Assembly: GCA_027459785.1 (NCBI GenBank)
Contig: DAIDGU010000056.1
Span: 40,230 to 104,229, forward strand
DNA: 64,000 nt
DNA from: Ktedonobacteria bacterium
GTDB taxonomy: Bacteria > Chloroflexota > Ktedonobacteria > Ktedonobacterales > JACDGC01
Direction of reading: 5' to 3'
This document shows, piece by piece, positions 1,636-64,000 of this stretch (the first letter of the stretch is position 1; every line of letters starts with the position of its first letter). The position numbers and the translations under genes were made by a program. The notes beneath the pieces were generated by a model that worked only from the letters and a program-made list of their open reading frames with translations, was not told where the DNA came from and searched no databases.

Positions 1636-1815
1636 GGTATGAGACCAATTTCGGGTAAAGACAGTGGCCATCGAGGCCGGTCAGACAGGAATGTCTGTCC
1701 TCCGTGGTTGTGGAGAATGGCTGTCCTCCATGTGATCGTTATAACAGACAAGCATGGCTGTCCTCCCTTACCCATATTGATTATCCGCAATGGGTATGAG
1801 ACCTGCGACAGCGGC
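1636..1815. repeat. Dispersed repeat family A copy (core hairpin GGACAGACAGGAATGTCTGTCC plus GGCTGTCCTCC sub-repeats), bounded by gggtatgagacc direct repeats
   Basis: Near-identical segments at 12545-12660, 26330-26375, 32110-32262, 41350-41382, 46003-46050 and 49520-49600. Confidence 0.7.
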
Positions 1816-12544: not shown

Positions 12545-12660
12545 AAGACCAGGGGAAAACAAGGAGTTTATACCCATTTCGGGATAAGACGGTGGTCAGC
12601 GGGGCCGGACAGACAGGAATGTCTGTCCTCCGGATGGTAGAGTGATGACTCGGATTAGGT
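12545..12660. repeat. Repeat family A copy
   Basis: caggggaaaac...tttcgggataagacggtggtcagcggggccggacagacaggaatgtctgtcctccggatggtagagtgatgac. Confidence 0.7.
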
Positions 12661-21921: not shown

Positions 21922-22467
21922 ATGGATGATGGGAGCTTCGTCGCGCGCGTTACGCCCCACTTGGCGGAGATGCTGCGCGTCGCCGCCGTGCTGGTCGGGC
22001 CGGCGGAAGCGGAAGACGCCGTGCAAGAGGCGTGCGTGCGCGCCTGGCAAGGCTGGCCGGAGTTGCGGGCGGCGGAGGCCGTGCGCACCTGGCTGTTGCG
22101 CATCGTCGTGAACGTGTGTCGCAATTGGCTCAACGGCCATTTCGGCACGCACCGCGACCGCACCACGCCACTGGAAGGTGATCTCGTGCGCCAACTCGCC
22201 CTGCCCGGCAGCGATCCCGGCAACAGCGACCATACCGGCGCGCTGGATCTGCATCAAGCAATGGCCCATTTGGATGCCGACCTGCGCGTGGTGGTGGCGC
22301 TGCGCTACTTCGTGGGGCTGGATGCCAGCGCGATCGGCGCGGCGCTGGGCCTGCCGCCGGCCACCGTGCGCACCCGGCTCCGCCGCGCCTTGCTGCACCT
22401 GCGCGACCGCCTTCAGCCGGACGTGAGCCTGACCGCGCCCCACAGCGAGGGAGATGCACATGCTTGA
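21922..22467 (+). CDS. ECF-subfamily RNA polymerase sigma-70 factor
   Basis: Region 2 (RIVVNVCRNWL) and a region 4 helix-turn-helix (DASAIGAALGLPPATVRTRLRRAL). Confidence 0.8.
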   Translation: MDDGSFVARVTPHLAEMLRVAAVLVGPAEAEDAVQEACVRAWQGWPELRAAEAVRTWLLRIVVNVCRNWLNGHFGTHRDRTTPLEGDLVRQLALPGSDPGNSDHTGALDLHQAMAHLDADLRVVVALRYFVGLDASAIGAALGLPPATVRTRLRRALLHLRDRLQPDVSLTAPHSEGDAHA

Positions 22468-23929
22468 TGATACCTTTGGCAATCATGCAGGAGAAGACAT
22501 TTTTCCTGACGCCGATCCCACGCTGCACGCGACGGAACAACGCCTGATCGATCTCGGTGTAGCGTGGCGGGCGCGTCCCCTCACCACCGCGCCGCTCGCC
22601 GATCACGTGCGCGATCTTGCCGCCACTGGCCGGTCCCCATCATCTGCCTACGCGCTTCAAGAGGAATTTGTTTTGATGCAAGCTACCGCTACTCCGCCGG
22701 TCGCTACGGCACCCAAAGCCGTTCGCCGCCGCTGGCTCATGATCCCCACTGCCGCCGCCTTGCTGGTGGCCGTGCTGAACGTCGCCGTCTTCGCTGCCTT
22801 CGCGCACCGCCCAGCAACGAGCGCGCGCCCCTATACCAGCACCACGATCACGCCGACCATCGCCACCGTCGCTGCCCAGGCGCTCGACCGCTATGCCACC
22901 GGCGCGAACGAAGCGTCGTCGCTCACCACCGGACCGGACGGCGCGCTCTGGTTCACTGGCACCGATGCCCCCACCGCCGCGATTGCCAGCAGCATGATCG
23001 GACGCATGACGACCGCTGGTGCGCTCACTACCTATCCCATCCCCAACTCGTCGTATGTCTTCGATCCCAAAACACATGATCTCCTACGTAACTCCTTCGC
23101 TGATTCAATCATTAGGGGACCGGACGGCAATCTCTGGTTCACCTATAGCGTGGGAACCGCCCAACGCCAGGATAATAATCCGCCGACCAACATGAACTTT
23201 ACAGGCGCGATCGGGCGCATCACGCCAGCGGGCAAGATGACATTTTTCGCGCTCACACCCGATCTGCCCACGCAGGCGACCAATGCCGGTCTTGGTGATC
23301 TCACGGTCGGACCTGATAACAATCTCTGGTTCACCGCCAGCTATGAGCAAGGCAAAACCACCAACGGCCTGATTGGGCGCATCACGACCACCGGCGCGAT
23401 TACCCTCTTCCCACTCCCCGGCCACGCGATCCCCGTCGGCATCGTTACCGGACCAGATAAGCATGTGTGGTTCGCCGACGGCAACACCATCGGTCGCATG
23501 GCACAGGACGGCTCGGCGACGTATATTCCCATCACCGGTTCAACAAATTTTGTGGCCTTTGATGGAACTGGCAAACTGTGGTTCTTCGACGGCAACCGCA
23601 TGGGGCGGCTTGATCCCATCGCTCGCACCATTACGTATACCGCCTTACCCCAACTTTACACGGCATTCGGTTTACAAGCTGGGCCGAATGGCGATGTGTG
23701 GGCGACGCTGCAAGATCCTGGCCTGCCAGCTACCTATCCTGCTGACCGGCACTTGTATACCTTTACTACCAGCGGCGCGATTCGCCAGGTAACGCTGCCC
23801 GGCACGAACTTTTCTGGCAATCTAGGCATCGGCCCCGATGGCAAGCTCTGGCTGGCGGACTTCCAATTCACCGGCCCTGGCCGCACGACCAACGACCTCC
23901 GCAGCTACCTCGCGCGCCTCACACCATGA
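22454..23929 (+). CDS. Anti-sigma factor-like membrane protein with an extracytoplasmic Vgb/NHL-like beta-propeller
   Basis: Overlaps the sigma gene stop; one TM helix (WLMIPTAAALLVAVLNVAVFAAF); repeated GPDG.LWFT blades. Confidence 0.6.
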   Translation: MHMLDDTFGNHAGEDIFPDADPTLHATEQRLIDLGVAWRARPLTTAPLADHVRDLAATGRSPSSAYALQEEFVLMQATATPPVATAPKAVRRRWLMIPTAAALLVAVLNVAVFAAFAHRPATSARPYTSTTITPTIATVAAQALDRYATGANEASSLTTGPDGALWFTGTDAPTAAIASSMIGRMTTAGALTTYPIPNSSYVFDPKTHDLLRNSFADSIIRGPDGNLWFTYSVGTAQRQDNNPPTNMNFTGAIGRITPAGKMTFFALTPDLPTQATNAGLGDLTVGPDNNLWFTASYEQGKTTNGLIGRITTTGAITLFPLPGHAIPVGIVTGPDKHVWFADGNTIGRMAQDGSATYIPITGSTNFVAFDGTGKLWFFDGNRMGRLDPIARTITYTALPQLYTAFGLQAGPNGDVWATLQDPGLPATYPADRHLYTFTTSGAIRQVTLPGTNFSGNLGIGPDGKLWLADFQFTGPGRTTNDLRSYLARLTP

Positions 23930-24640: not shown

Positions 24641-26191
24641 TCACTCCCACTCAATCGTCGCCGGCGGCTTAGAGGTGATGTCGAAGACGACGCGGTTCAC
24701 GGCGGGGACTTCGTTGACGATGCGGTTCGCCACGCGGGCCAGCAGGTCATAGGGCAGCCGCGCCCAGTCCGCCGTCATGAAGTCGCCGGTGGTGACGGCA
24801 CGCAGCGCGACGACGTTGGCATACGTGCGGTAATCGCCCATCACGCCCACGCTACGCACGGGCGTCAGCACGGCGAAGGCTTGCCCTGTGGGGCGATAGA
24901 GATCGGCGGCGCGCAGTTCCTCGATGAAGATCGCATCCGCCGCGCGCAACGTCGCCAGCCGCTCTTCCGTCACCGCGCCGATGACGCGGATCGCCAGGCC
25001 GGGGCCGGGGAAGGGATGTCGCCAGACCCAGTCTTCGGGGAGGCCCAGTTCCGCGCCGACCGCACGTACCTCGTCCTTGAAGAGATAGCGCAGCGGCTCG
25101 ACCAACTGGAACTTTAGGTCGCTGGGCAGCCCGCCGACGTTGTGGTGGGTCTTGATCGTCTGCGCGGCGGCGGTGTCGTGGCTAGTACTCTCGATCACGT
25201 CGGGGTAGAGCGTCCCTTGCGCCAGGAACGGCACATCGCCCAGCTTGGCCGCTTCGCCCTCGAAAACGCGGATGAACTCCGCGCCGATGCGCTTGCGCTT
25301 CTCTTCGGGATCTTCCACCCCCGCCAGGCGTTCCAGGAAGCGAGCGCGAGCATCGGCCACGATCAGCGGGATGTGCATGTGGTCGCGGAAGGTCGCCGCC
25401 ACCTGTTCGCCTTCACCCTGGCGCAACAGGCCCGTATCCACGAAAACGCACGTGAGTTGATCGCCGACGGCGCGATGGATCAAGAGCGCAGCCACGGCGG
25501 AATCCACGCCGCCGGAGAGGCCGCAGATCACACGCCTGTCGCCCACCTGGGCTTTGATGCGCGCCACCGTTGCCTCGATCACGTTTTCCGTCGTCCACTC
25601 CGGCGCGCAGCCACAGATGCCGAAGAGGAAGTTTTCCAGCACCTGCGCGCCCTGCGGCGTATGCGCCACTTCGGGATGGAATTGCAGGCCTACCAGTCCG
25701 CGCGCGTGTCCCATTGCCGCCACCGGATTGCTGTCGGAGGTCGCCAGCAGCGTGAAGCCTTCCGGCAGCTCGGTGACGGAATCACCGTGGCTCATCCACA
25801 CGTGCAGCGAGGTCGAAGCGTCCAGCCCGGCGAAGATCGCGTCCTGCGGCGCGGGATGCTCGTCCGTCAGTGTGATCGTGGCCGGACCATATTCGCGCCG
25901 CCCCGTCGCCAACTGCACCTTGCCGCCCAGCGCCTGCGCCATCACCTGCATGCCGTAGCAGATCCCCAACACCGGCAAGTTGCTGGTGAAGATCGCCGCG
26001 TCGCACTGCGGCGCACCGGCATCATAGACGCTATTCGGCCCACCGGAAAGGATCACGCCCTGGCAACCACGCGCCCGCAAATCCTCCAACGTCGTCGTGT
26101 TCGGGACGATCTCGCTATACACCCGCGCCTCGCGCACGCGCCGAGCGATCAGGCGCGTGTATTGGGAGCCGAAGTCGAAGATGGCGATCAT
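24641..26191 (-). CDS. guaA: GMP synthase (glutamine-hydrolysing)
   Basis: 516 aa; GATase N-terminus [19 protein letters not shown]; PP-loop SGGVDS. Confidence 0.95.
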
Positions 26192-26329
26192 GGTGGGTCT
26201 GCTCTTTCTGAAGATTCCGGCACGTCATGCCGAGCGGCGCAGTGGCCTCAATGACCCCAGCGCGCATAATAGTCGTGTGTATTGGCTAGGTATTGATACT
26301 ATATCACCGAATTGACCAGTCTGGCTCAG

Positions 26330-26375
26330 GTGGCTGTCCTCTGGATGATAGCGTAATTACCCGCAAACGGTATTC
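26330..26375. repeat. Partial repeat family A copy
   Basis: ggctgtcctctggatgatagcgtaattacccgc matches the 32226-32262 segment. Confidence 0.5.
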
Positions 26376-26624
26376 CAGCGGATGGCGAAAGGATTGCTAT
26401 GCCGTCACCATCTCTACTTCACTATGCAGCGCGTGCGCTGTTTCCTGCAATGGCTATTGCAACGTTTCGATGCGCTGCTCCTTATCCTTGATCCGCTGAC
26501 GGAGGTCTATTTTGTTCTAGAAAAACTGGTATGGCTCCGAAAAAAAAACGTCTCATGCGTTTCCTCGGCACGTTTGGCAGAGCCTATGCGTCGCAAACGG
26601 TTAAGCTGAAGGAGGTGGGATACG

Positions 26625-26918
26625 ATGCAAACCTGGTTTCAAGATTTTCTGCATACGATGGAAGATGTCTTGCGTCGTATGGTGCGCGCGTTCGTCCTGT
26701 GGGGCGCGGTGATCACATTCGTCGCAACCGCATGGTTCAGCCTGGCTGTTCATCGTTTGCCGCGTGGCGGCGAATGGGGATTAGTCCTTGGCCTCTTCAT
26801 CGCTTCGGGTTTATTGGGGATGCTGGCCATCTTAGTATGGGAACTCTCGCATATCGGGCCGATCATGCGCGCCGTCAAGCGCCAGGATGAGCCACACATT
26901 ATCTATCACAACCGCTAG
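26625..26918 (+). CDS. Small membrane protein (hypothetical)
   Basis: Strong SD (AAGGAGGTG) 6 nt upstream; two predicted TM helices; preferred over the overlapping 26531..26890 frame. Confidence 0.45.
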   Translation: MQTWFQDFLHTMEDVLRRMVRAFVLWGAVITFVATAWFSLAVHRLPRGGEWGLVLGLFIASGLLGMLAILVWELSHIGPIMRAVKRQDEPHIIYHNR

Positions 26919-26989
26919 CACACATACCCTGCGGCAAGCGTACCAGCGTTCCACCCAACTGCCTGCCAGAAGTCACGCCCACAGCGCCG

Positions 26990-27388
26990 TCACGCTTCGG
27001 TTGCCGGCGGAGTATTGCCGCGCTCTAATCGCTCCACCCGCACCATAAGCTCATTATGGCGCTCTGCCTGTGCCGCGAACCCCTCGCGCATTTCTTTCAG
27101 CATCTCTTGCTGTGTCGCCTCGATATTACTGACCTTTTGTGTCAGCACGATGACAACGTCAGCCAGTGCCTTGATATCGTTCCTAAGTTCATTATCGCGG
27201 GTCAACGACTCCCGTCGGAGGGCTTCATCGCGGGCGATCGCTTCTTGCCGATCCACCCGCATTTGCGTCTTAATCTCGTCGGTTTGACCGTTGACAAAGG
27301 TGGTGATGCGCAGGAACAGACGATCAAGCGCCATCGTAAGCTGATCAGGGTAAATCGGTTGCTGCGGCGGTTGTGGTTGCGCGGCCAT
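26990..27388 (-). CDS. Coiled-coil hypothetical protein (paralog of 15535..15930)
   Basis: 132 aa; shares the MREGFAAQAERHNEL signature with 15535..15930. Confidence 0.5.
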   Translation of the reverse strand: MAAQPQPPQQPIYPDQLTMALDRLFLRITTFVNGQTDEIKTQMRVDRQEAIARDEALRRESLTRDNELRNDIKALADVVIVLTQKVSNIEATQQEMLKEMREGFAAQAERHNELMVRVERLERGNTPPATEA

Positions 27389-27552
27389 GAGCGTACTCCT
27401 CTCGTTGCTGAAAGCATACCATATTCACGCCCTCTTGTCGATGCACGGGGCGAACCCCAATGGATGCGTGCTATACCCCCTACGATGCAGCGTGGGGCTG
27501 CCGATATGATGAATAAGACGAGGCCGCGCCAGGATTTCCAGGAGGAAGCACC

Positions 27553-28020
27553 ATGAAAGTTGAGTTTATCAATCCCTTCGTCAAAGCCGCCATCGATGTA
27601 CTCAAATCGGAGATCGGGTCCGAGATTGAGCGCGGGCGATTGCGTGTGGATGCCAGCGCCAGCAGCAACCAGGATGTGAACGTGATGATCGGCGTCACCG
27701 GTGCCGCGCAGGGTTTCGTGCTGTATAGCATGGCGAGCGAGACGGCGAAAAACATTGTCGGCAAGATGATGGGCCAGCCCTTCGAGGAATTCGATGCGCT
27801 GGCGCAGAGCGGCATCGCCGAGATGGGCAACGTCATCACCGGCCTCGCCAGTCGTGGCCTCTCCGAGACCGGCTACATCTGCAACATCACGCCGCCCACG
27901 CTCATCACCGGCAAGCACACCACCATCGGCACGCTGGATATCCCCCGCCTGGCGCTGCCCCTCACCACCGTCTGCGGCATCATCGAGATTCACCTGGCCC
28001 TGCGCGAGATGGCCGCCTAA
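27553..28020 (+). CDS. cheX: CheX/CheC-like chemotaxis phosphatase family protein
   Basis: 155 aa; CheX signature (MKVEFINPFVKAAIDVLKSE...GNVITG); AGGAGG SD. Confidence 0.7.
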   Translation: MKVEFINPFVKAAIDVLKSEIGSEIERGRLRVDASASSNQDVNVMIGVTGAAQGFVLYSMASETAKNIVGKMMGQPFEEFDALAQSGIAEMGNVITGLASRGLSETGYICNITPPTLITGKHTTIGTLDIPRLALPLTTVCGIIEIHLALREMAA

Positions 28021-28063
28021 GCCATGCCTGGCTCGTACCCAGCAGGCATACGTGGCTGAACGA

Positions 28064-28876
28064 TCAGCGGTGCCGGCCCGTGTCGATGACGAAGACCAGT
28101 TCCGTCGGGAAGGCGATGCGCCGGATCGCCCAATCCTGCCCCGCGATTAAGTCGTCGAAATGCGCCTCGTAAAATGTCGGCATGCCTTTGCGCCGCCCGC
28201 CCAGGCTTTGGCTGGGGAACGAGACCACCAGCCAGCGCGCAGGAGTCGCGGTCAGCAGGCGGCGTCCAGCGTCACGGTCCAGTTGTTCCAGACAAGGGAT
28301 CGCTTTCAGTAGAAAAGCGAGGTCCACCGGCTCCGGTGGGATCGCCTGGGTCACGTCGCCGGTCGTCGCCCGGCCTTGCACGCCCGTCAGCGGCAGGAAC
28401 GCGCCGATGAACGCCATCATCTCGGCATAGATGTCGCAGGCGTGGTACCGCGCCGCCGGCGCGAGCGGCAGCCAGGGCAGGGCCAGCGGATGCAGCCCAC
28501 ACGCCAGATCCAGCACCGACGCGATGGGTGGCAGATCGGCGAAGATTGCGGCATAAAAGTCATCCAGAAACGGCAGTCGCTCGCGCATCGAGGCATGGTG
28601 CGCCATGATCGCCCGGCATGCAGGTCGCAAGTCGCCCGCTACGGCGGCTTCCTGCAATTCCGCCAGCCAATGATCATATGGCATCGTTTGCGCCAGAAAC
28701 GCGCCCCCGACCTGATGCAGCCGGTCCTTTGTCGCCTTGATCGCCTCTTTCAGCGTGCGCCGTTTCGCCAGTTCCTCCTGCCCGATACGCCGCACCAGCG
28801 CGGCATCAATACCACGATATTTCGCGCTCGCCCCCACCGCCGCCACCAACTCGTCCAGGTCCATCATCTGTGCCAA
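28064..28876 (-). CDS. 16S rRNA (guanine1405-N7)-methyltransferase, FmrO/ArmA/Rmt/Kgm family (aminoglycoside-resistance type)
   Basis: Colinear with ArmA along the full length: SAKYRGID, KDRLHQVGG, ERLPFLDDFYAAIF, VLDLACGLHPLALPW (ArmA ILDFGCGFNPLALYQW), YHACDI, VDLAFLLKAIPCL, LVVSFPSQSLGGRRKGM. Confidence 0.85.
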   Translation of the reverse strand: MAQMMDLDELVAAVGASAKYRGIDAALVRRIGQEELAKRRTLKEAIKATKDRLHQVGGAFLAQTMPYDHWLAELQEAAVAGDLRPACRAIMAHHASMRERLPFLDDFYAAIFADLPPIASVLDLACGLHPLALPWLPLAPAARYHACDIYAEMMAFIGAFLPLTGVQGRATTGDVTQAIPPEPVDLAFLLKAIPCLEQLDRDAGRRLLTATPARWLVVSFPSQSLGGRRKGMPTFYEAHFDDLIAGQDWAIRRIAFPTELVFVIDTGRHR

Positions 28877-29073
28877 CTACTTTCCTCCGACAACTCCCTG
28901 ATCATGGGGCGGCTCGCAATCACTGTAGGGCAAATACGAAGCTCACCGCCCATACCCTCTGAATTTGGCCCACTCGCTTTCAAAAAAACGTCAAGTCGTT
29001 GCACTTGAAGCGACCTGCCTTTCCGAACTAGTACGACTCTCTACAAAAAAGTAACTTTATTGCTAAACCGCTG

Positions 29074-29152
29074 AAGGGGCAACCCTTCCGAGAGTTCGAA
29101 TCTCTCCCTCTCCGCCCATCCCTCAAGCCCGCTCTCGCAGCGGGTTTTTTAT
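29074..29152 (+). other. Structured element: GNRA-tetraloop hairpin, tRNA T-arm-like hairpin (GAGAG-TTCGAAT-CTCTC) and Rho-independent terminator
   Basis: gaaggg-gcaa-cccttc; gagagttcgaatctctc; gcccgctctcgcagcgggTTTTTT; no matching tRNA 5' half was found. Confidence 0.35.
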
Positions 29153-29191
29153 TGCCGGAAACCATCGGTATGTGGCGCAACACGTGCTTCA

Positions 29192-30931: not shown

Positions 30932-31954
30932 TTGGAGGAAAGCATGACAGATACAACCGCGAGGCCCTTGGCTGCCTGCCATGTTGCGGAAGGACAACAA
31001 GGCACATGGATCAATTCCTTTCTGCCACGCTACGAACCCTTTTTCTTTCAAGGAGAACAATTGGTCAACCGTTTGCTTAAGGCAGGATTGATTGTCTATA
31101 CGCGGCCTGAATTTCACGCGAGTTTTCCTCAGTTTGCCTTAGCGTATGGATGTACCTACCATCTCTGGGATGTTCCGCAGGATACCTATGTATGGATGGC
31201 TGATGCAACCCAACGGTTATACCTCGATGCGGATCTTTTGCAGGACATCCTGCGAGATCAGGTGCGATTGCACCGAGGTCAGGTGTATGATCACACGTGG
31301 TGTCTCCGCATACAGGACGAGGCAAAAATGTATGGCCTGCAGGAAAGGAGTTGGCAACAGCTTTTTCAGCGGTATCAGGTGTATGATGGGTCAACTCATT
31401 TCATCCTCACTCACGATTTGTGGACCGCTTTACCCCAGGGTGTGCAAGAAGCCTGGATCCTCGCATGGCTCAACGATCAATTAGTGGACGATGCGGTAGT
31501 GCCGATCAATCCGTGTGATGTCCCCGTCCCCGATTCACATCGACCGTTGGTGATGAAGTATAGCGGGCGCTTTGCGGATGCGAGCGGGGCCAATTGTTTT
31601 GCTGCGACGCTGGCGATGGCGATGGGTACGCTTGCCAAAACAGAGCATATCATTCATGTCTGGCTGCACCAGGAACCGTTTCTGCGTTCGCTGCGAGCGG
31701 CGGGGTATCATCCGGTACAGGAGATCCACCACGGAGACACGATCGATGCAATCAAGGCTCTAGATGTCCTGATCTGGGCAAACGGGGACGGCCACATCGT
31801 CCATGCGTCTTTTTGTGTGGCACCTGGATACGTCTTCAATAAAATGGGGCAAAGCTGGGAACAACCGTGGTTGATTCTGCGCATCGAAGATGTCCTCGAT
31901 TACAACCAGGTGATCTCTACAGAAGGAACCTTGATTGTGTATCGAAAGTCGTAA
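30932..31954 (+). CDS. Hypothetical protein with a possible papain/transglutaminase-like Cys-His core; compositionally atypical (~50% GC)
   Basis: GGAGGA SD; C-terminal SGANCFAATLAMAMG ... GDGHIVHA resembles a Cys/His catalytic pair; GC is well below the flanks. Confidence 0.5.
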   Translation: MEESMTDTTARPLAACHVAEGQQGTWINSFLPRYEPFFFQGEQLVNRLLKAGLIVYTRPEFHASFPQFALAYGCTYHLWDVPQDTYVWMADATQRLYLDADLLQDILRDQVRLHRGQVYDHTWCLRIQDEAKMYGLQERSWQQLFQRYQVYDGSTHFILTHDLWTALPQGVQEAWILAWLNDQLVDDAVVPINPCDVPVPDSHRPLVMKYSGRFADASGANCFAATLAMAMGTLAKTEHIIHVWLHQEPFLRSLRAAGYHPVQEIHHGDTIDAIKALDVLIWANGDGHIVHASFCVAPGYVFNKMGQSWEQPWLILRIEDVLDYNQVISTEGTLIVYRKS

Positions 31955-32109: not shown

Positions 32110-32262
32110 CCCTTTCGGGTAAAGAGAGTGGCCATCAAGGCCGGACAGACAAGAATGTCTGTCCTCCGGGTGATAGCCCTGGGGCGCTGAAGGTCCAGAT
32201 CAATCAGGACAAGACAGACAGGAATGTCTATCCTCCGGATGATAGAGTGATGACCCGCATAG
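32110..32262. repeat. Repeat family A copy (two hairpin units)
   Basis: tttcgggtaaagagagtggccatcaaggccggacagacaagaatgtctgtcctccgg ... gacagacaggaatgtctatcctccggatgatagagtgatgacccgc. Confidence 0.7.
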
Positions 32263-32266
32263 GATA

Positions 32267-35200
32267 TTACGCCCCGTAATACACGAAGCTGGCCCAGTAG
32301 AGCGGATGGGCGAACGGCTTGTCTTCTGGCAGCGCGAAGTCGGCCAGGGTGAGGTCCGGATCGCGGGCGATGTCGTTGCCGTAATCGCGCGCCAGTTCGG
32401 CCTGCGACATGTTGCGCAGCCAGCGTTGGGCGTTGCGCAATGCCTGGGCCGGCTTCTGGTCCTGTCCCAGATAGAGTTCGGCGAAACGGCGCATCAGCAA
32501 CAGCGTGGCGAGATCGCTTGCGGGCCAGAGGCACGCCGCCACGCCACCCACACCGCCGGCCAGCATCGCCGCCGCCGGGCCGATGCTCTCGTCCGGTGCA
32601 TTGGCCGCCGACATCGCTGACTGCCCCGCGCTCAGCACCAGCACGCGCACGCCGCGCAGCCGCACCGCGCCCGTCAGCACATCCACGATTTTGAGCGCGC
32701 TGCCTTCAGCCAGTTCCAGGTACGATTCAACCGGGCGTTCGGGGTAGTACGCACTGGCACAGGCGAGGTGGATGTAGGCGCGTTCGGCCAGTGCTTTCTG
32801 CACCGCATCGGCATTGGCTTTGCGGCGAATGAGCAGCGTGCAGGACTGGCTGGAACGACTGGCGACCTGCGCGACAGCCTCGGCCTCGTGTTCGGCCCAT
32901 TCCAGCGCCACGCTGGCCGGCTGAGGATTGCCGATGGCGGCGACGCCGGACCGGAGTACCACGGCGGAAGCCGCGCGGGCCAGGCCCAGCCGTTGGGCAG
33001 AGGGCGCGCAGGTCACATCGAAAGCATCCAAAAAAACCGCATCGTCGCGCGTCGCCGGCTCCTCGGCCTCCTCGTCGCGCACGGGAGCCGCCGTGCCGAT
33101 GGGCGCGGCATGCAAAGGTAAAGTCGCCAGGCGTCCGGCGGGGATGAGCGCGACGCTGGTGAGCGTCAGCGCGTGTAGCCGCGCCGCGAGGGGCGCCATC
33201 ACCTGCTGGCCCAGCTCCGCCAACCAGCCGTCCAGGTTGGTCGGACGCGGCAGGTTGCCTAGCTGCGTCTTCACCACCGATTCAGCATCTTCAGCCTGGG
33301 GGGCTAGCTTGTCGATGGCGGCGGTCGTCAGGTCCGGCGCGAAGAGGATGTGATCAGCGCGCAAATCGCCCGCGCCGCCGGGGATGATCAGCGCCAGAGT
33401 TCCCTGCGTGGTCGTGGCCAGGTAGACCAATGCCTGGCCCTTGCCGCCCGCCGCACCCGCGATCTGGCGGAAGCTCAAGGCGGGATGCAGGAAATCCGCG
33501 CGGCTTTTGCGGATGGCGGCGACAGCGGCGTCGAAAGCCGCCTGGGCATTGCGGCGCTCGAAGGCCAGGTCGTCCAGGCTGCGCTGTAAGGTCGAGGGCC
33601 GGTCGTCCTGGCTCAGCCGCAGATTCTCGCTGGTGAGGTCGCCGCCCGCGCTGGTGATGCGCTGCGCGCTTTCATACATTGCCGCCAACTGTGCCTGGGC
33701 GCGCTCGAAGGCCACGCGCGCCGTCACCGGCACGGCCAGCAGCGTCAGGCGGTCGCGCTCCAGCATCTCATCCAGCGCGCGGGCGCGGCCCGCTTCCAGC
33801 CGCTGGGCGGCGTCGCGCGGGCGATTCAGCTTCAGCAGGCAAAAGGCGTCGTGTGCGACCATCTCGCCGTGTTCGCGCAGGCGCGGCGACGGCCCATCCA
33901 TGCCGATGCTCAGCATATAGAGTGTTGCAGAAGCGGCCAGCGCGCTGGCAAACATCTCGTGCGCCTCGGCCCAGCGTCCCAACTCGCAGAACAAAAGGGC
34001 CAGGTTGCGCGCCGTGCGGCGATGTTCGTTCGGGAAGGCGTCGCGCGTGCGAATGCGCAGGGCTTCCTGATAGCAGACGATGGCTTTGTTCTGATTTTCC
34101 GCCTGGTCGCCCACCACCCGTTCGCGGTAGGCGTTGCCAAGGTTGTTGCGCGTGTCGGCCCATTCCAGCGGCGACCGCTCGCGCGTCTGCACCAGCATGG
34201 ATTGCTCGTAATAGGCGATGGCTTGTTCAACATTATCGGCGTGGTTGCCGAAAAGGCGTTCGGTGTAGGCCACGCCCAGATTGTGGCAGATCAAGCCCCA
34301 TTGGTCGGGCGCGTTGGCCTGGGTGAAGTAAGTGAGGGCGGCCTCGAAGCCGGTGATCGCCTGCTCGATATTGCCCATGCGCGTGCCATTGACGCGCTGC
34401 CCATACGCATTGCCCAGGCTGAGCTGATCGGTCGCCCACTCGAAGGGGGCTTTTTCGCGCGTGCGCACGGTCATGGCAGCCTCGAAGGCGGCGATGGCGC
34501 GGTCCAGATTCTCGGCACGCGTGCCGACGCCACGCAGATAATACGCGCTGCCCAGCGCCTCTTGGGTCGCCGCCCACTCGATAGGAGACGTTTCGCGCGT
34601 GCGCACTTCCAGCGCGGCTTGCAGCGCCTCGATGCCCTGTTCCACGTTCAGCGCGTGGTCGCCCAACTCGCGGGCCATAAATGCCAGCCCCAGGTAATGC
34701 TGCGCCAGCGCCCAATCGCTGGGATATTCCAGCTTCGTGAAGATCTGCAATGACGAATCCAGCGCCTCGATGGCTTGCTCGACATTCTGTGTATGGTCGC
34801 CCGTCGGCACACGCGGCAAGATCAAGCCCAGTTCGCGCTGCAACGCCGCCCACAGCAGATCGTCTTGTTCGCGTGACGCCAGGTAGCTCGCCGCTTCGAT
34901 CAAGGCGACGCGCTGCTCCAGGTTGACGGCGGCATCCGGCGCTTCCAACTGCGCCAGCAGGGCATCCAGGTCGGCGGCGGGCGCGGCATGGGGCCAGGGC
35001 ATACGCTCAAAGGCGAAGGCGACGCCCTCGCGCTGCGCGACTTCCAGCGTTTGCAGATAGCGCGCCAGCACTTGCGACGCCGCTGGGCCGACTCGTTCCG
35101 CCACGCGGCTGACGTTGGCGCGCAGCAGCATCAGGGCGGTGTTCGTCAGCAGTTCGGGATGCGCCTCGACGACGGCGCGCGAGGCCTCCCAGTCCGGCGC

Positions 35201-35551
35201 ATTGACGAATTCTTCCAGGGCGCGAGCGACCTCTTCGGGATCGACCGGCGCGCCGGGGGGACGCGGTGGCGCGAATGGACGCGAATTGGGCCGCGCGCCG
35301 GCATACGGCTGATAGACGCCGGCACCGGCCAGGCGCTCGCGGTCGGCGGGGGTCAGGCGCGGCAACTCGGCAGGTTGCGGGGCCGGCACGGCGCGCAACG
35401 GCATGGTGGACGGGCCAGCATCCGGTTCGGTCAGCGGCTGATGATGGCCGCCGATATGGATGACCTCGACTTCGTTCGGCGGCGGCAACATCGGGTGAAC
35501 CGATGGCGGTGGCGAAGGGGGTGTTTGACGACGGCGAAAACGGCGAAACAT
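32267..35551 (-). CDS. TPR-repeat protein with a C-terminal CHAT (caspase-like) domain whose catalytic residues appear degenerate
   Basis: 1094 aa; many TPR-like units (LG.AY, EQAI.A.E.AL); C-terminal CHAT-like block YIHLACASAYYPE...VRVLVLSAGQS, where the consensus would be HLA.HG and LSAC. Confidence 0.75.
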   Translation of the reverse strand: MFRRFRRRQTPPSPPPSVHPMLPPPNEVEVIHIGGHHQPLTEPDAGPSTMPLRAVPAPQPAELPRLTPADRERLAGAGVYQPYAGARPNSRPFAPPRPPGAPVDPEEVARALEEFVNAPDWEASRAVVEAHPELLTNTALMLLRANVSRVAERVGPAASQVLARYLQTLEVAQREGVAFAFERMPWPHAAPAADLDALLAQLEAPDAAVNLEQRVALIEAASYLASREQDDLLWAALQRELGLILPRVPTGDHTQNVEQAIEALDSSLQIFTKLEYPSDWALAQHYLGLAFMARELGDHALNVEQGIEALQAALEVRTRETSPIEWAATQEALGSAYYLRGVGTRAENLDRAIAAFEAAMTVRTREKAPFEWATDQLSLGNAYGQRVNGTRMGNIEQAITGFEAALTYFTQANAPDQWGLICHNLGVAYTERLFGNHADNVEQAIAYYEQSMLVQTRERSPLEWADTRNNLGNAYRERVVGDQAENQNKAIVCYQEALRIRTRDAFPNEHRRTARNLALLFCELGRWAEAHEMFASALAASATLYMLSIGMDGPSPRLREHGEMVAHDAFCLLKLNRPRDAAQRLEAGRARALDEMLERDRLTLLAVPVTARVAFERAQAQLAAMYESAQRITSAGGDLTSENLRLSQDDRPSTLQRSLDDLAFERRNAQAAFDAAVAAIRKSRADFLHPALSFRQIAGAAGGKGQALVYLATTTQGTLALIIPGGAGDLRADHILFAPDLTTAAIDKLAPQAEDAESVVKTQLGNLPRPTNLDGWLAELGQQVMAPLAARLHALTLTSVALIPAGRLATLPLHAAPIGTAAPVRDEEAEEPATRDDAVFLDAFDVTCAPSAQRLGLARAASAVVLRSGVAAIGNPQPASVALEWAEHEAEAVAQVASRSSQSCTLLIRRKANADAVQKALAERAYIHLACASAYYPERPVESYLELAEGSALKIVDVLTGAVRLRGVRVLVLSAGQSAMSAANAPDESIGPAAAMLAGGVGGVAACLWPASDLATLLLMRRFAELYLGQDQKPAQALRNAQRWLRNMSQAELARDYGNDIARDPDLTLADFALPEDKPFAHPLYWASFVYYGA

Positions 35552-45982: not shown

Positions 45983-46002
45983 CCGTTCGCTGGCAGACCA
46001 CC

Positions 46003-46050
46003 CGGAGGACAGACATTCTTGTCTGTCACCTGGCGGACAGGGAAGTCGCC
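46003..46050. repeat. Repeat family A core hairpin, inverted orientation
   Basis: ggaggacagacattcttgtctgtcacc. Confidence 0.5.
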
Positions 46051-49519: not shown

Positions 49520-49600
49520 GGAAAAAGCGGTGGTCAGCGGGGCCGGACCGACAGGAATGACTGTCCGCCGAGGTGAGGGCGAATGGCTGTCCGCCGGTAC
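49520..49600. repeat. Repeat family A copy
   Basis: gcggtggtcagcggggccggaccgacaggaatgactgtccgccgaggtgagggcgaatggctgtccgcc. Confidence 0.6.
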
Positions 49601-61399: not shown

Positions 61400-63060
61400 C
61401 TTCGATGACCATCTCTGAGGGCCACGGATGTTTATCGTTGACACTCCGCATAGGCTAAAGCCGTAGCGGATTCTTGGTTCAGCCAGTGGACTTGCCGGTG
61501 AGACTCACGCCCCAGCGGTAGCGGCCCCTCTGTCCCCAAGCGTTGCCTACGGTCCAGCCGTAGCCGTTGTCCCATGCCCTAGGATACGGATCGCTTCCTG
61601 CAAGATGTTCAGTGCCGCGTTGTGATCCCGATCCACAATCAGTCCACAGTGGGGACAGCAATGGGTGCGCACGCTCAGGCTTTTCTTGACGATGGCCCCA
61701 CAGCCACTACACTTCTGGCTGGTATAGGCCGGTGGAACGGCCACGCATTCGATACCGGCCAGGCCCGCATAATAGCGCACCCAGGAAAAGGGACCATCCG
61801 GCATCACTGATACTCTTGGCGAGATGATGGTTTTTCACCATGTTGCGCACCTGGAGATCTTCAAAGGCAATCAGGTCGCTAGACATGACGAGCGCGTATG
61901 CCACTTTGCGGGCATAATCTTCACGCTGCCTTTGGACATGCAAATGCTGCTTGGACAAAGCCTTGCGGGCTTTCTGATAGGTGTGCGATTGGGGACGTTT
62001 AACGTCTTTGGGTTGTGCTGGTGGCAAGGAGGTCTGTCGTGGATATTTGTTCCGTCCCTTTGCTGCTTTCGGTTTCTTGGTATCCTTGTGCCGATTGCTC
62101 TTGCGGCTGACTTCTCGCTGAAGCTTTTTTAACTTCATCTCTGCCTGGCGATAATAGCGCGGGTTGTCTACCGTGGTGCCATCGCTGTCGGTGTAGAAAG
62201 CGTTCAGCCCCACATCAATGCCCGTCTGTTTGCCAGTGGGAACATGTTCAACTTGACGCACCGCATCCACACAGAATTGGCAGTAGTAGCCATCGGCACG
62301 GCGAATGAGACGGACCCGTTTGATCTGCTTCTCAGGGAATGTCTCAATCGCCCGTGTGCCGATGAGACGCACGCGCCCGATACCCAGGCCATCCGTGAAG
62401 GTGATATGCCTGCCATCCGCATCTCGTGTCCAGCCAGCAACCTTGTACTCAATGCTGCGGCTATCATGCTTGAAACGTGGATAGCCTTTCTTGCCTGGCT
62501 TCTGCTGTTTGCAGTTCTCATAGAACCGCTGTACGGCTTTCCACGCTCGTTCTGCCGCTGCCTGACGCGCTTGGGAACCCAACTTGGCGGCAAAGGCGAA
62601 CTGCCCTGCGAGAACCGCCGTGTAGGCACTCATGGCAGCAAAGTTCTTGCCGTCCTCAGCACGATCCATCCACGCTCGGAGGCACTTGTTGCGGAGAAAT
62701 TGCCCCACCCGAATACCCTCTTCGATGGCAGTATACTGCGCTGGGGTGCCATCCAGTTTGCATTCGTAGGTGAGCATGGGGTACTTTGCCTTTCGGGCGA
62801 GATAGTCTTGCAACATCTGGATAACCTGGCTGTTAAACGAGCGGTTTTCTTGTTTTGCCAAGGCTTGGATGCGCTGGAAAAACATGAGGGGAAACCGTAC
62901 CCCCTATGTTTTTCATCGGCTCTTTTGGTGTATCCATATGCGTATTGTACGATTATAGAAGGGCGCGTAAAACCCCGCGCCTTTAGGCCGGGGATAGAAG
63001 CGCCGTCGCAGGACGCGACACCGCGCCCCGTTTGTATATTCCCCTTGCATCCTTACTGTA
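61400..63060 (-). mobile_element. IS200/IS605-family TnpB-only (IS1341-like) element, tnpB frameshifted
   Basis: TnpB ORF split between 61547..61807 and 61707..62777; structured right-end region at 61400-61546 with gccgtagcgg-type hairpins; left-end hairpins at 62880-63060; the boundaries are approximate. Confidence 0.6.
61547..62777 (-). pseudogene. tnpB: tnpB (RuvC-like, OrfB zinc ribbon) disrupted by a frameshift near 61800
   Basis: Upstream frame carries RuvC-I (IDVGLNAFYTDSDG) up to ...SISDAGWS; the other frame continues FSWVRYYAGLAGIECVAVPPAYTSQKCSGCG...CPHCG...DRDHNAALNI (zinc finger plus RuvC-III). Confidence 0.7.
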
Positions 63061-63081
63061 GTGTGTGGTATACGGTACGCA

Positions 63082-64000
63082 TGAAACATGAACGTGCGTA
63101 CCGCTATCGGTTGTACCCCACACCGGAACAGGATGCGATTCTGAGCCGGACGTTTGGCTGTACGCGCTTCGTGTATAACTGGGCCTTGCGCCTGCGCACG
63201 GATGCCTGGTATGACCGACAAGAGCGGGTCAACTATGAGGCCACCTCGGCGGCTCTGACGGCGCTGAAAAAAGAGGAGGCGACGCACTGGCTCAACGAGG
63301 TGTCCAGTGTTCCTCTGCAACAAGCCTTGCGCCATCTGGACCGCGCCTTCCGCAACTTCTTTGAAGGCCGTGCGAAGTACCCCGTCTTCAAGAAGAAACG
63401 CAACCGGCAAGCGGCGACCTATGCCAGTTCTGCCTTTACCTGGGACGGGGCGACCCGTACCCTGCAATTGGCGAAAATGGACGAGCCACTCACTATCGTG
63501 TGGTCGCGCCAGATGCCCAAGGATGCCAAGCCCAGCACGGTGACGGTGACGCGCGATGCGGCGGGCCGCTATTTCGTGAGTATCCTCATTGAAGAGGACA
63601 TCCGCCCCCAGCCCGTCACGCCTAAAATGGTCGGCCTGGACCTGGGCATCCATGACACCGTAACCCTCAGCACCGGCGAGAAAGTCGGTAATGAACGCTT
63701 CTTCCATAAAGACGAAAAGAAGCTGGCCCATGCCCAGCGTGACCTGGCCCGCAAACAGCCGGGGAGTAAGAACCGTACCAAGCAGAAGCGCAAGGTCGCA
63801 CGTATCCATGCGACCATTGCGGATCGGCGGAACGACTTCCTGCATAAACTGACGACGCGGCTGATCAACGAGAACCAAGTGATCTGTGTCGAGTCGTTGG
63901 CCGTGAAGAATATGCTCCGTAACCACAGTCTCGCCAAGGCGATTGCCGATGTGGGCTGGGGGGAACTGATCCGGCAACTGGCATACAAGGCCGCCTGGTA
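63082..64000 (+). CDS. tnpB: IS200/IS605-family TnpB, 3'-partial at the window end; absent from the ORF track because no stop lies inside the window
   Basis: Manual translation: MKHERAYRYRLYPTPEQDAILSRTFGCTRFVYNWALRLR...MVGLDLGIHDTVTLSTGEKV...CVESLAVKNM...GWGELIRQLAYKAAW (canonical TnpB N-terminus, RuvC-I D and RuvC-II E). Confidence 0.85.

Follow-up and report, generated by a model that had tools for sequence, protein, structure and literature searches.

A probably native FmrO/Arm-family 16S rRNA methyltransferase gene in a Ktedonobacteria genome and the setting of its relatives among RNA modification genes of Chloroflexota

A gene of the FmrO/Arm (Kgm) family of 16S rRNA methyltransferases was found on the minus strand, at positions 28064..28876, of a 64,000-nucleotide stretch of DNA from a Ktedonobacteria bacterium of the phylum Chloroflexota (assembly GCA_027459785.1, contig DAIDGU010000056.1, positions 40,230 to 104,229 of the forward strand), the whole of which is referred to here as the 64-kb window. 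The gene almost certainly encodes a functional member of the family, and the combined statement of a native Chloroflexota FmrO/Arm 16S rRNA methyltransferase, inherited vertically and acting on N7 of G1405, is, in our judgment, reasonably likely to be correct. Because its clade is vertically inherited and is normally situated among tgt, rsmI, rsmB/F-type, and rlmN genes, the gene looks like a housekeeping rRNA modification gene. An earlier note on this DNA had singled it out as a chromosomal copy outside the known producers of aminoglycosides; the chromosomal location stands, and such a copy has proved to be less unusual than was assumed. Taken alone, the gene is one more chromosomal FmrO homologue in a phylum already known for them. 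The wider pattern is more interesting, in that a family known only for resistance and self-resistance seems to include a large branch that is inherited vertically and built into RNA modification operons, beside the enzymes for C1402 and C1407.

Family assignment and start codon

The open reading frame (ORF) reported in the earlier note was recovered at exactly the coordinates given above, with a length of 270 amino acids and TTG as its start codon. The predicted protein matches the Pfam FmrO profile (PF07091) at full length (E value, 2.5e-57; bit score, 194.7, against a cutoff of 27; profile positions 2 to 255 of 255), and its sole strong sequence matches in the PDB, all aligning end to end, are Sgm (E value, 3.9e-46), RmtB, RmtF, ArmA, and RmtC. 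Profile searches keep the window protein in the FmrO family, as the earlier note had it, and the assignment holds equally for the predicted fold and for most of the critical residues. Family membership by sequence and fold is firm, and chance is no explanation for the match.

Two start codons come into consideration. The TTG at 28874-28876 is preceded by a Shine-Dalgarno sequence, GGAGG (28884-28888), with a 7-nt spacer (the whole element at 28874..28888, minus strand), and it lines up with the ATG of the 87% identical ortholog (P0002); the 270-amino-acid form belongs to the same 90% cluster as the window protein. An NCBI contig of 104 kb carries a record of the identical protein (P0001), for which the NCBI call is the ATG at 28867, three codons downstream of the TTG, which gives 267 amino acids. 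The FmrO domain is whole from either start. Several plus-strand ORFs overlap the methyltransferase gene (e.g., 28376-29008, 210 amino acids); they were judged to be GC-rich shadow ORFs because the profile, homologue, and selection evidence all lies on the minus strand.

Predicted structure and comparison with Sgm

The AlphaFold2 model, for which 18 clade sequences were used, is confident, with a mean predicted local distance difference test score (pLDDT) of 91.7 and a predicted template modeling score of 0.89. Its weakest stretch, at about residues 221 to 230 (pLDDT of about 63), matches the loop that is disordered in free RmtC. The predicted structure has the two-part architecture of a helical N-terminal domain (N1 and N2) followed by a class I S-adenosylmethionine (SAM) methyltransferase domain. 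When the model was compared with the PDB by Foldseek, Sgm ranked first (template modeling [TM] scores, 0.89/0.92; root mean square deviation, 1.7 Å over 265 columns), followed by RmtB, RmtF, RmtC, and ArmA. The top 16 matches are all methyltransferases that form 7-methylguanosine at position 1405 (m7G1405), and all remaining matches have TM scores below 0.5.

Sgm of Micromonospora zionensis (PDB 3LCU/3LCV), a producer-type Kgm/Arm m7G1405 methyltransferase, is thus the best match both in sequence and in structure, the latter at about 36% identity. The two proteins have in common the N1/N2 helical and class I methyltransferase domains, SAM-binding motif I, and a Phe at the position of Tyr60 of RmtC. 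Unlike the window protein, Sgm has Lys in place of Gln223 and Gln in place of Leu199. Sgm is the self-resistance gene of a sisomicin producer; no biosynthetic context surrounds the window gene within the 64 kb, and its clade is a separate one that extends across Chloroflexota.

Conservation of critical residues

The roles of critical residues in RmtC were taken from Nosrati et al. 2019 (10.1101/712810) and Srinivas et al. 2023 (PMC10288597) and were transferred by a mafft alignment of the window protein with Sgm and five enzymes from plasmids, RmtC, ArmA, RmtB, RmtE, and RmtF; a residue census was made over 201 Chloroflexota clade members. Thirteen of the 15 residues that are experimentally critical in RmtC are kept, with Asp174 counted for RmtC Asp188 after a one-column correction of the alignment. 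The apparent loss of Asp188, which had been aligned to Val175, was rejected as an alignment slip because the neighboring Asp174 is kept in 186 of the 201 clade members in the same G-D context.

The SAM-binding motif claimed by the earlier note is present as motif I, DLACGLHPLAL (residues 123 to 133; 28478..28510, minus strand), in the alignment with RmtC, ArmA, RmtB, RmtE, RmtF, and Sgm. The SAM-binding residues that were found are Ser96 (RmtC Ser107), Arg100 (Arg111), Asp123 and Gly127, Asp148 (Asp160), and the realigned Asp174. Those that dock on the 30S subunit and distort helix 44 are represented by Lys19 (Lys20), Tyr20 (Tyr21), Lys50 (Arg50), His54, Arg228 (Arg241), and Met232 (Met245), the Lys at the position of Arg50 being found likewise in ArmA, RmtE, and Sgm. 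Among the residues that position G1405, Phe60 (RmtC Tyr60) and Lys191 (Lys204; codon at 28304..28306, minus strand) are present. Sgm, RmtE, and RmtF also have Phe at the Tyr60 position, and the Y60F mutant of RmtC stays active (PMC10288597). Lys204 of RmtC is universally conserved and contacts N7 of G1405 (PMC10288597); its equivalent here is invariant in all 201 clade members, as are His54, Ser96, Arg100, Asp123, and Gly127, while Asp148 and Met232 each occur in 200 of them.

The segment QSLGGRRKGM (residues 223 to 232; 28181..28210, minus strand) corresponds, by alignment and census, to Lys236 and Loop237-246 of RmtC. In it, Arg228 and Met232 are kept, and Gln223 stands in place of Lys236. 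Gln198 occupies the position of RmtC Arg211, the same residue as in ArmA and RmtE. Alignment against ArmA, RmtB, and Sgm bears out the earlier note as far as most critical residues are concerned; its wording that every conserved block is kept goes a little too far, since the positions of RmtC Lys236 and Gln212 carry other residues.

By analogy with the characterized enzymes, the protein would dock on the 30S subunit through its N-terminal domain, whereupon the C-terminal loop (Arg228 and Met232) and His54 would distort helix 44 and flip out G1405. Phe60 and Lys191 would then position the G1405 base, and SAM, presumably bound by Ser96, Arg100, Asp123, Asp148, and Asp174, would pass its methyl group to N7. 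The most likely role of such an enzyme would be the constitutive, native modification of the decoding center, and intrinsic insensitivity to 4,6-disubstituted deoxystreptamine aminoglycosides would be its consequence or by-product. The analysis shows the family, the fold, residue conservation, distribution, gene neighborhoods, purifying selection, and native composition, whereas we infer which nucleotide is methylated, that resistance results, that expression is constitutive, and that the role is one of housekeeping.

Distribution and phylogeny of the clade

Relatives of the window gene were confirmed at at least 539 loci by a pattern scan of species-representative genomes, with one genome per species, and the family comprises 446 clusters at 50% identity (E values up to 1e-30). 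Taxa and gene neighborhoods were compared for the best 80 of these at least 539 loci (49 to 63% identity), which are the most query-like and hence a nonrandom sample of the phylum. By the submitters' taxon labels, 78 of the 80 belong to Chloroflexota, among them Ktedonobacteria (including the isolate Dictyobacter aurantiacus), Anaerolineae, Caldilineae, Ardenticatenales/Promineifilaceae, Thermoflexales, Roseiflexaceae, and Herpetosiphonaceae. The two other labels are those of metagenome-assembled genomes (MAGs) assigned to Roseobacter sp. (L016) and to Armatimonadota (L072), the latter with the typical tgt-fmrO arrangement; they are either binning or labeling errors or else rare transfers out of the phylum. 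The named FmrO homologues of the window protein come from Ktedonobacteria.

In a neighbor-joining tree of about 119 sequences, computed without support values, the window protein branches within the main Chloroflexota clade and groups there with P0002 to P0017 and two Ktedonobacterales MAGs in one subclade. The clinical enzymes and Sgm lie outside, and the paralogs found adjacent to some of the genes form a separate clade. Chloroflexi FmrO homologues have already been placed in a tree as uncharacterized proteins (Nosrati et al. 2019, 10.1101/712810, Fig. 1A). The window protein belongs to the same group, the chromosomal FmrO-family genes of Chloroflexota, to which that study gives a tree position only. 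Our search of the literature found neither functional tests nor descriptions of gene context for Chloroflexota FmrO homologues. The rsmI-tgt-fmrO arrangement, the variable Lys236 position, the clade of adjacent paralogs, and the relocated state described below are new here, none of them having been found in the literature searched. Three papers were set aside as off topic with regard to Chloroflexota phenotypes: PMC6416219 concerns DHPS, PMC10132066 concerns rmtE plasmids, and PMC3368417 is without antibiotic data.

Composition, selection, and mode of inheritance

Codon composition, the ratio of nonsynonymous to synonymous substitution rates (dN/dS), and a divergence parallel to that of PolA argue for vertical inheritance. 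The GC content of fmrO is 0.65, and that of its third codon positions (GC3) is 0.77, similar to the values for GuaA, FolC, and PolA (0.65 to 0.68 and 0.83 to 0.85, respectively). The dN/dS is 0.13 in comparison with the 87% identical ortholog and 0.18 in comparison with the 71% identical one. Down the series of relatives, FmrO identity falls from 87% through 75, 73, and 72% to 63% and then to about 57%, and PolA identity falls in parallel from 86% through 79, 79, 74, and 73% to 65% and then to about 60%. Every named homologue of the window's PolA belongs to Ktedonobacterales or Ktedonobacteraceae, and the host is accordingly taken to be an uncultured member of Ktedonobacterales. These data point to a functional gene of native origin that evolves under purifying selection, and we regard it as quite likely that it is a housekeeping or intrinsic gene that is neither linked to a biosynthetic cluster nor acquired.

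Association with tgt and other RNA modification genes

Neighbors of fmrO were detected by tblastn with single representative queries, and key neighbors were confirmed by Pfam. Enough upstream sequence to be informative was available for 73 of the best 80 loci, and in 55 of these a same-strand tgt gene, encoding queuine tRNA-ribosyltransferase (TGT; Pfam E value, 8e-88), ends less than 400 nt upstream of fmrO. The gap is mostly shorter than 35 nt; four loci have a tblastn match of tgt that overruns the start of the fmrO match by 1 to 4 nt, and five others encode TGT 0.5 to 1.9 kb upstream. Other recurrent neighbors are an RsmI-type methylase (22 loci), an RsmB/F-type methyltransferase (17 loci), RlmN (8 loci), and a second FmrO paralog (12 loci). 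Pfam confirmed the identities of TGT, the RsmI-type methylase, RsmB/F with its RsmF N-domain, and RlmN. The order RsmI>TGT>FmrO is contiguous in 15 loci, and the longer order RsmI>TGT>FmrO>FmrO2>RsmB/F was found in 6.

According to PMC3923132, RsmI acts on C1402 (2′-O) and RsmF on C1407 (m5C), so that genes acting on positions 1402, 1405, and 1407 of helix 44 would be clustered in these Chloroflexota. By guilt by association, the clustering with RNA modification genes therefore suggests a native role in rRNA modification. The tgt/rsmI context of the Chloroflexota genes differs from both the biosynthetic clusters of producers and the transposons of clinical genes. Although the folds and chemistry of RsmI and RsmF are unrelated to those of the FmrO family, the role proposed to be shared with them is the constitutive modification of the decoding-center stretch 1402 to 1407, and their genes often adjoin Chloroflexota fmrO. 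PMC3923132 also describes acquired m7G1405 enzymes as disturbing endogenous methylation in Escherichia coli; in contrast to this interference, fmrO and rsmI/rsmF-type genes stand side by side in Chloroflexota.

We propose tentatively, and as somewhat less than an even chance, that m7G1405, or a close helix 44 methylation, is a constitutive, phylum-wide housekeeping mark of Chloroflexota and that the gene for its enzyme ancestrally shared a transcript with rsmI and tgt and had an rsmF-type gene in its cluster. If so, the Arm/Kgm family, regarded as one of aminoglycoside resistance, has a housekeeping branch, and an intrinsic insensitivity to 4,6-disubstituted aminoglycosides is to be expected in most Chloroflexota, where it would be both explained and predictable. 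Producer and clinical resistance genes could then have evolved from such a native enzyme. Should m7G1405 be confirmed, a whole phylum would carry, as a regular part of its decoding center, a mark that in Enterobacterales is seen as acquired and costly, with consequences for views on how 16S rRNA methyltransferase resistance arose. Surveys of soil and sludge resistomes that score such matches as aminoglycoside resistance genes probably count a native Chloroflexota gene.

The second FmrO paralog (FmrO2), which adjoins the main fmrO in 12 of the 80 loci, forms a clade of its own (L009, 10812-11630; L020, 10824-11642; L030, 10807-11625; L035, 8468-9298; L060, 3910-4746; L078, 2627-3463; and others). 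It has a 2-residue deletion in the KGM loop, Leu or Val at the equivalent of the essential Met245, and Arg at the position of RmtC Gln212.

Relocation of the gene in the window's lineage

We read the rsmI-tgt-fmrO operon as the ancestral setting and the window gene as an ortholog of the tgt-linked gene that was moved beside cheX in this lineage, because the tree places the window protein inside the main clade and because P0010, a member of its own subclade with 71% identity, retains an overlapping GNAT-RsmI-TGT-FmrO operon. The linkage to tgt seen in 55 of the 73 other loci and in P0010 is missing from the window. Instead, the methyltransferase gene is convergent, across a 43-nt gap, with a CheX-family gene (27553..28020, plus strand; Pfam E value, 5.2e-16). 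In the 87% identical relative (P0002), a HAD hydrolase gene is followed by fmrO convergent with cheX, and the convergent pair is present in both L001 and L002. DNA homology between the window and this relative comprises only cheX (27553-28028) and fmrO (28061-28861). None of the window's neighbors (GuaA, FolC, a coiled-coil ORF, a 340-amino-acid ORF, a CHAT protein, and others) was found beside fmrO in the 80 loci; CheX is the only one kept, and only in the 87% relative. No remnants of tgt, rsmI, GNAT, or HAD genes were detected in the intergenic DNA flanking fmrO-cheX. The 70% identical relative (P0009) has unrelated neighbors, and the 63% identical relatives carry an intact, divergent tRNA-Val gene directly upstream of fmrO (L005, 3759-3835; L006, 3130-3205).

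Upstream of the methyltransferase gene in the window, at a distance of about 180 nt and divergent from it, lies the orphan 3′ half of a tRNA-Ser(GCU)-like gene (29058..29117, plus strand). This half, situated between folC and the methyltransferase gene, consists of the anticodon loop, a long variable arm, the T arm, and the 3′ strand of the acceptor stem, and it has no 5′ half. ARAGORN called no complete tRNA at 29058..29117, the window holds no second copy, partner repeat, or intact tRNA-Ser for it, and no authentic tRNA-Ser for comparison was found in 51 relative loci. A hairpin with a T run resembling an intrinsic terminator (29125..29157, plus strand) follows directly on the same strand. 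We read the tRNA-Ser half as the scar of a rearrangement breakpoint. An Rfam match to the "Plastid-psbl-rps4 3′UTR" on the opposite strand (E value, 1.1e-9) was rejected as the true identity; it was read as a match to the reverse complement of the tRNA-like fragment because its stem and GAUUCGAAC loop mirror a tRNA T arm.

Alternative explanations

A number of observations weigh against a native G1405 methyltransferase that was relocated within its lineage. To the nonrandom sample of loci and the tree without support values must be added that no tgt, rsmI, rsmB/F, or rlmN gene was found anywhere in the 64-kb window, that both flanks of fmrO-cheX are unlike those of the 87% relative, with an orphan tRNA half upstream, that no aminoglycoside phenotypes of cultured Chloroflexota were found in the literature, and that a second fmrO copy or a distant biosynthetic cluster may exist elsewhere in the genome, beyond the window. 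The score against the NCBIfam equivalog NF000466 (Rmt family m7G1405 methyltransferase), 218.8 bits, is under the cutoff of 250, despite an E value of 7.5e-65 and a match over profile positions 1 to 253 of 254. Position 223, which corresponds to RmtC Lys236, varies across the clade (His in 59 members, Arg in 58, Gln in 55, Ala in 18, and Lys in 6); in RmtC, Lys236 contacts the G1405 base, and the K236E mutant is largely inactive (PMC10288597). Leu199 takes the place of RmtC Gln212, an adenine contact, and this position is hydrophobic throughout the clade and Glu in RmtB.

An enzyme of the same fold and chemistry whose target is some other nucleotide, or which modifies G1405 solely in a certain state of assembly, and that confers no aminoglycoside resistance would agree with the score below the equivalog cutoff, the unconserved Lys236 equivalent, the hydrophobic Gln212 equivalent, and the description of the clade in the literature as uncharacterized (10.1101/712810). 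The adjacent FmrO paralog in 12 of the 80 loci also points this way, since it implies that the family has functionally diversified within the phylum. We nevertheless consider a different target or role unlikely. The universally or near-universally conserved essential residues (Lys204, His54, Tyr21, Asp160, Arg111, Ser107, and Met245 in RmtC numbering) are kept and are nearly invariant in the clade, and the KGM loop, which is lost in the paralog clade through the 2-residue deletion and the change of Met to Leu or Val, is retained in the main clade. Arg211, essential in RmtC, is Gln in the active enzymes ArmA and RmtE, and single deviations are therefore tolerated in the family; moreover, the predicted model superposes on Sgm over its full length. 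Given the deviations at the Lys236 and Gln212 positions and the missed equivalog cutoff, G1405 specificity is something that we infer, and judged from the sequence N7 of G1405 is the probable target.

The surroundings of the gene raise the question of import from outside. If the gene had been acquired for resistance and brought in by a small mobile module or a genomic island, since decayed, with tRNA-Ser as its integration site, this could explain the orphan 3′ half beginning at the anticodon loop, which can be read as a classic footprint of integrase insertion, and would agree with a homology to the 87% relative that stops at the borders of the fmrO-cheX pair. The tRNA-Val gene at the equivalent position in the 63% relatives, the transposase genes within 5 kb of fmrO in the 70% relative, and a low-GC gene 2 kb away in the window (30932-31954; GC content, 0.52) speak in the same direction. 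Against this, no integrase, transposase, or repeat partner lies within 29 kb on the expected side, GuaA is encoded 2 kb away, the GC content and GC3 of the gene are native, and its divergence ladder matches that of PolA. A member of the window's subclade retains the ancestral operon, so relocation within the lineage suffices and no import from outside is needed; acquisition on an island is accordingly improbable. Less probable still is an aminoglycoside-type producer in which the gene would confer self-resistance and the cluster would lie elsewhere in the genome. The closest solved relative of the gene product, Sgm, does come from a producer, and Ktedonobacteria are actinomycete-like and rich in biosynthetic clusters, but no sugar-aminotransferase, cyclitol synthase, or related genes occur within the 64 kb, and hundreds of genomes, among them those of anaerobic Anaerolineae, carry members of the clade, typically co-oriented with tgt and rsmI rather than with biosynthetic genes. 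The location in a biosynthetic cluster that marks the producer self-resistance type (Sgm, KgmB, GrmA, and FmrO) was not seen within the window.

The clinical enzymes share with the window protein the Pfam family, collinearity over the full length, the conserved 30S-docking residues, and most of the SAM-binding and G1405-positioning ones. Their identities to it are 34.7% (RmtE), 33.5% (RmtB), 32.7% (RmtF), 27.0% (ArmA), and 23.5% (RmtC), and its scores against the NCBIfam profiles of the clinical subfamilies are 54 to 127 bits, compared with cutoffs of 500 to 550. The best of these, for RmtE, is 127.3 bits against a cutoff of 525, which places the protein outside the acquired subfamilies (ArmA and RmtA to -H). 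While the clinical genes are carried on conjugative plasmids of Enterobacterales, the window gene is chromosomal and of native composition. Of the three readings offered by the earlier note, that of an intrinsic determinant survives and can be sharpened to a native, Chloroflexota-wide gene. A sign of aminoglycoside biosynthesis finds no support, no genes for it having been found within the 64 kb, and a reservoir relative of clinical genes is a weak reading at 23 to 35% identity and with the clinical enzymes outside the Chloroflexota clade in the tree.

Other features of the window

The chromosomal context of the gene is formed by genes for GuaA, FolC, AccA/AccD, PolA, a class II aminoacyl-tRNA synthetase, and Mur ligases within the same 64 kb; two genes are of the Mur ligase family, FolC being one of them. 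A tRNA-Thr gene and genes for a PurQ-like amidotransferase, TsaB, RimI-like proteins, an acyl-CoA dehydrogenase, and an aldehyde dehydrogenase were also found. Among the 45 ORFs scanned with Pfam, which span the window, there are no aminocyclitol, aminosugar, sugar-aminotransferase, or cyclitol synthase genes, and the same scan found no integrase in the 64 kb. The sole mobile-element gene seen encodes an IS605 OrfB (TnpB-like) protein (61707-62885, minus strand) at the right end of the window, about 33 kb from the methyltransferase gene, and next to it is a 354-amino-acid ORF that has no Pfam match (62913-63977, minus strand).

Between guaA and cheX there are two small ORFs, one of 132 amino acids and coiled-coil-like (26990-27388, minus strand) and one of 97 amino acids (26625-26918, plus strand). 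Both are without Pfam matches, lie in a stretch of lower GC content (0.57 for 26001-28000), and are missing from the locus of the 87% relative. About 4 kb from the methyltransferase gene, a 491-amino-acid protein of the virginiamycin B lyase family (PF24684; E value, 2.3e-37) is encoded at 22454-23929 on the plus strand, with internal repeats of about 160 to 190 nt that correspond to β-propeller blades; going by its sequence, it could be a streptogramin B lyase-like resistance protein or a hydrolase. Just past folC, the 340-amino-acid ORF at 30932-31954 (plus strand) has no Pfam match and a GC content of 0.52 and GC3 of 0.57, compared with about 0.65 and 0.83 in its neighbors, and is possibly foreign DNA. 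It is followed by the gene for a 1,094-amino-acid protein with TPR and CHAT (caspase-like protease) domains (32267-35551, minus strand).

A dispersed, partly palindromic intergenic repeat, GACAGGAATGTCTGTCCTCCGG, occurs in six copies in the window (1684-1705, 12612-12633, 32148-32169, 32217-32238, 46002-46023 on the minus strand, and 49550-49571), compared with none expected from shuffled sequences. The repeat is also found directly upstream of fmrO in L001 to L004. It looks like a repetitive extragenic palindromic (REP) or miniature inverted-repeat transposable element (MITE)-like element, and we assign it to this lineage because it is common to the genome of the 87% relative.

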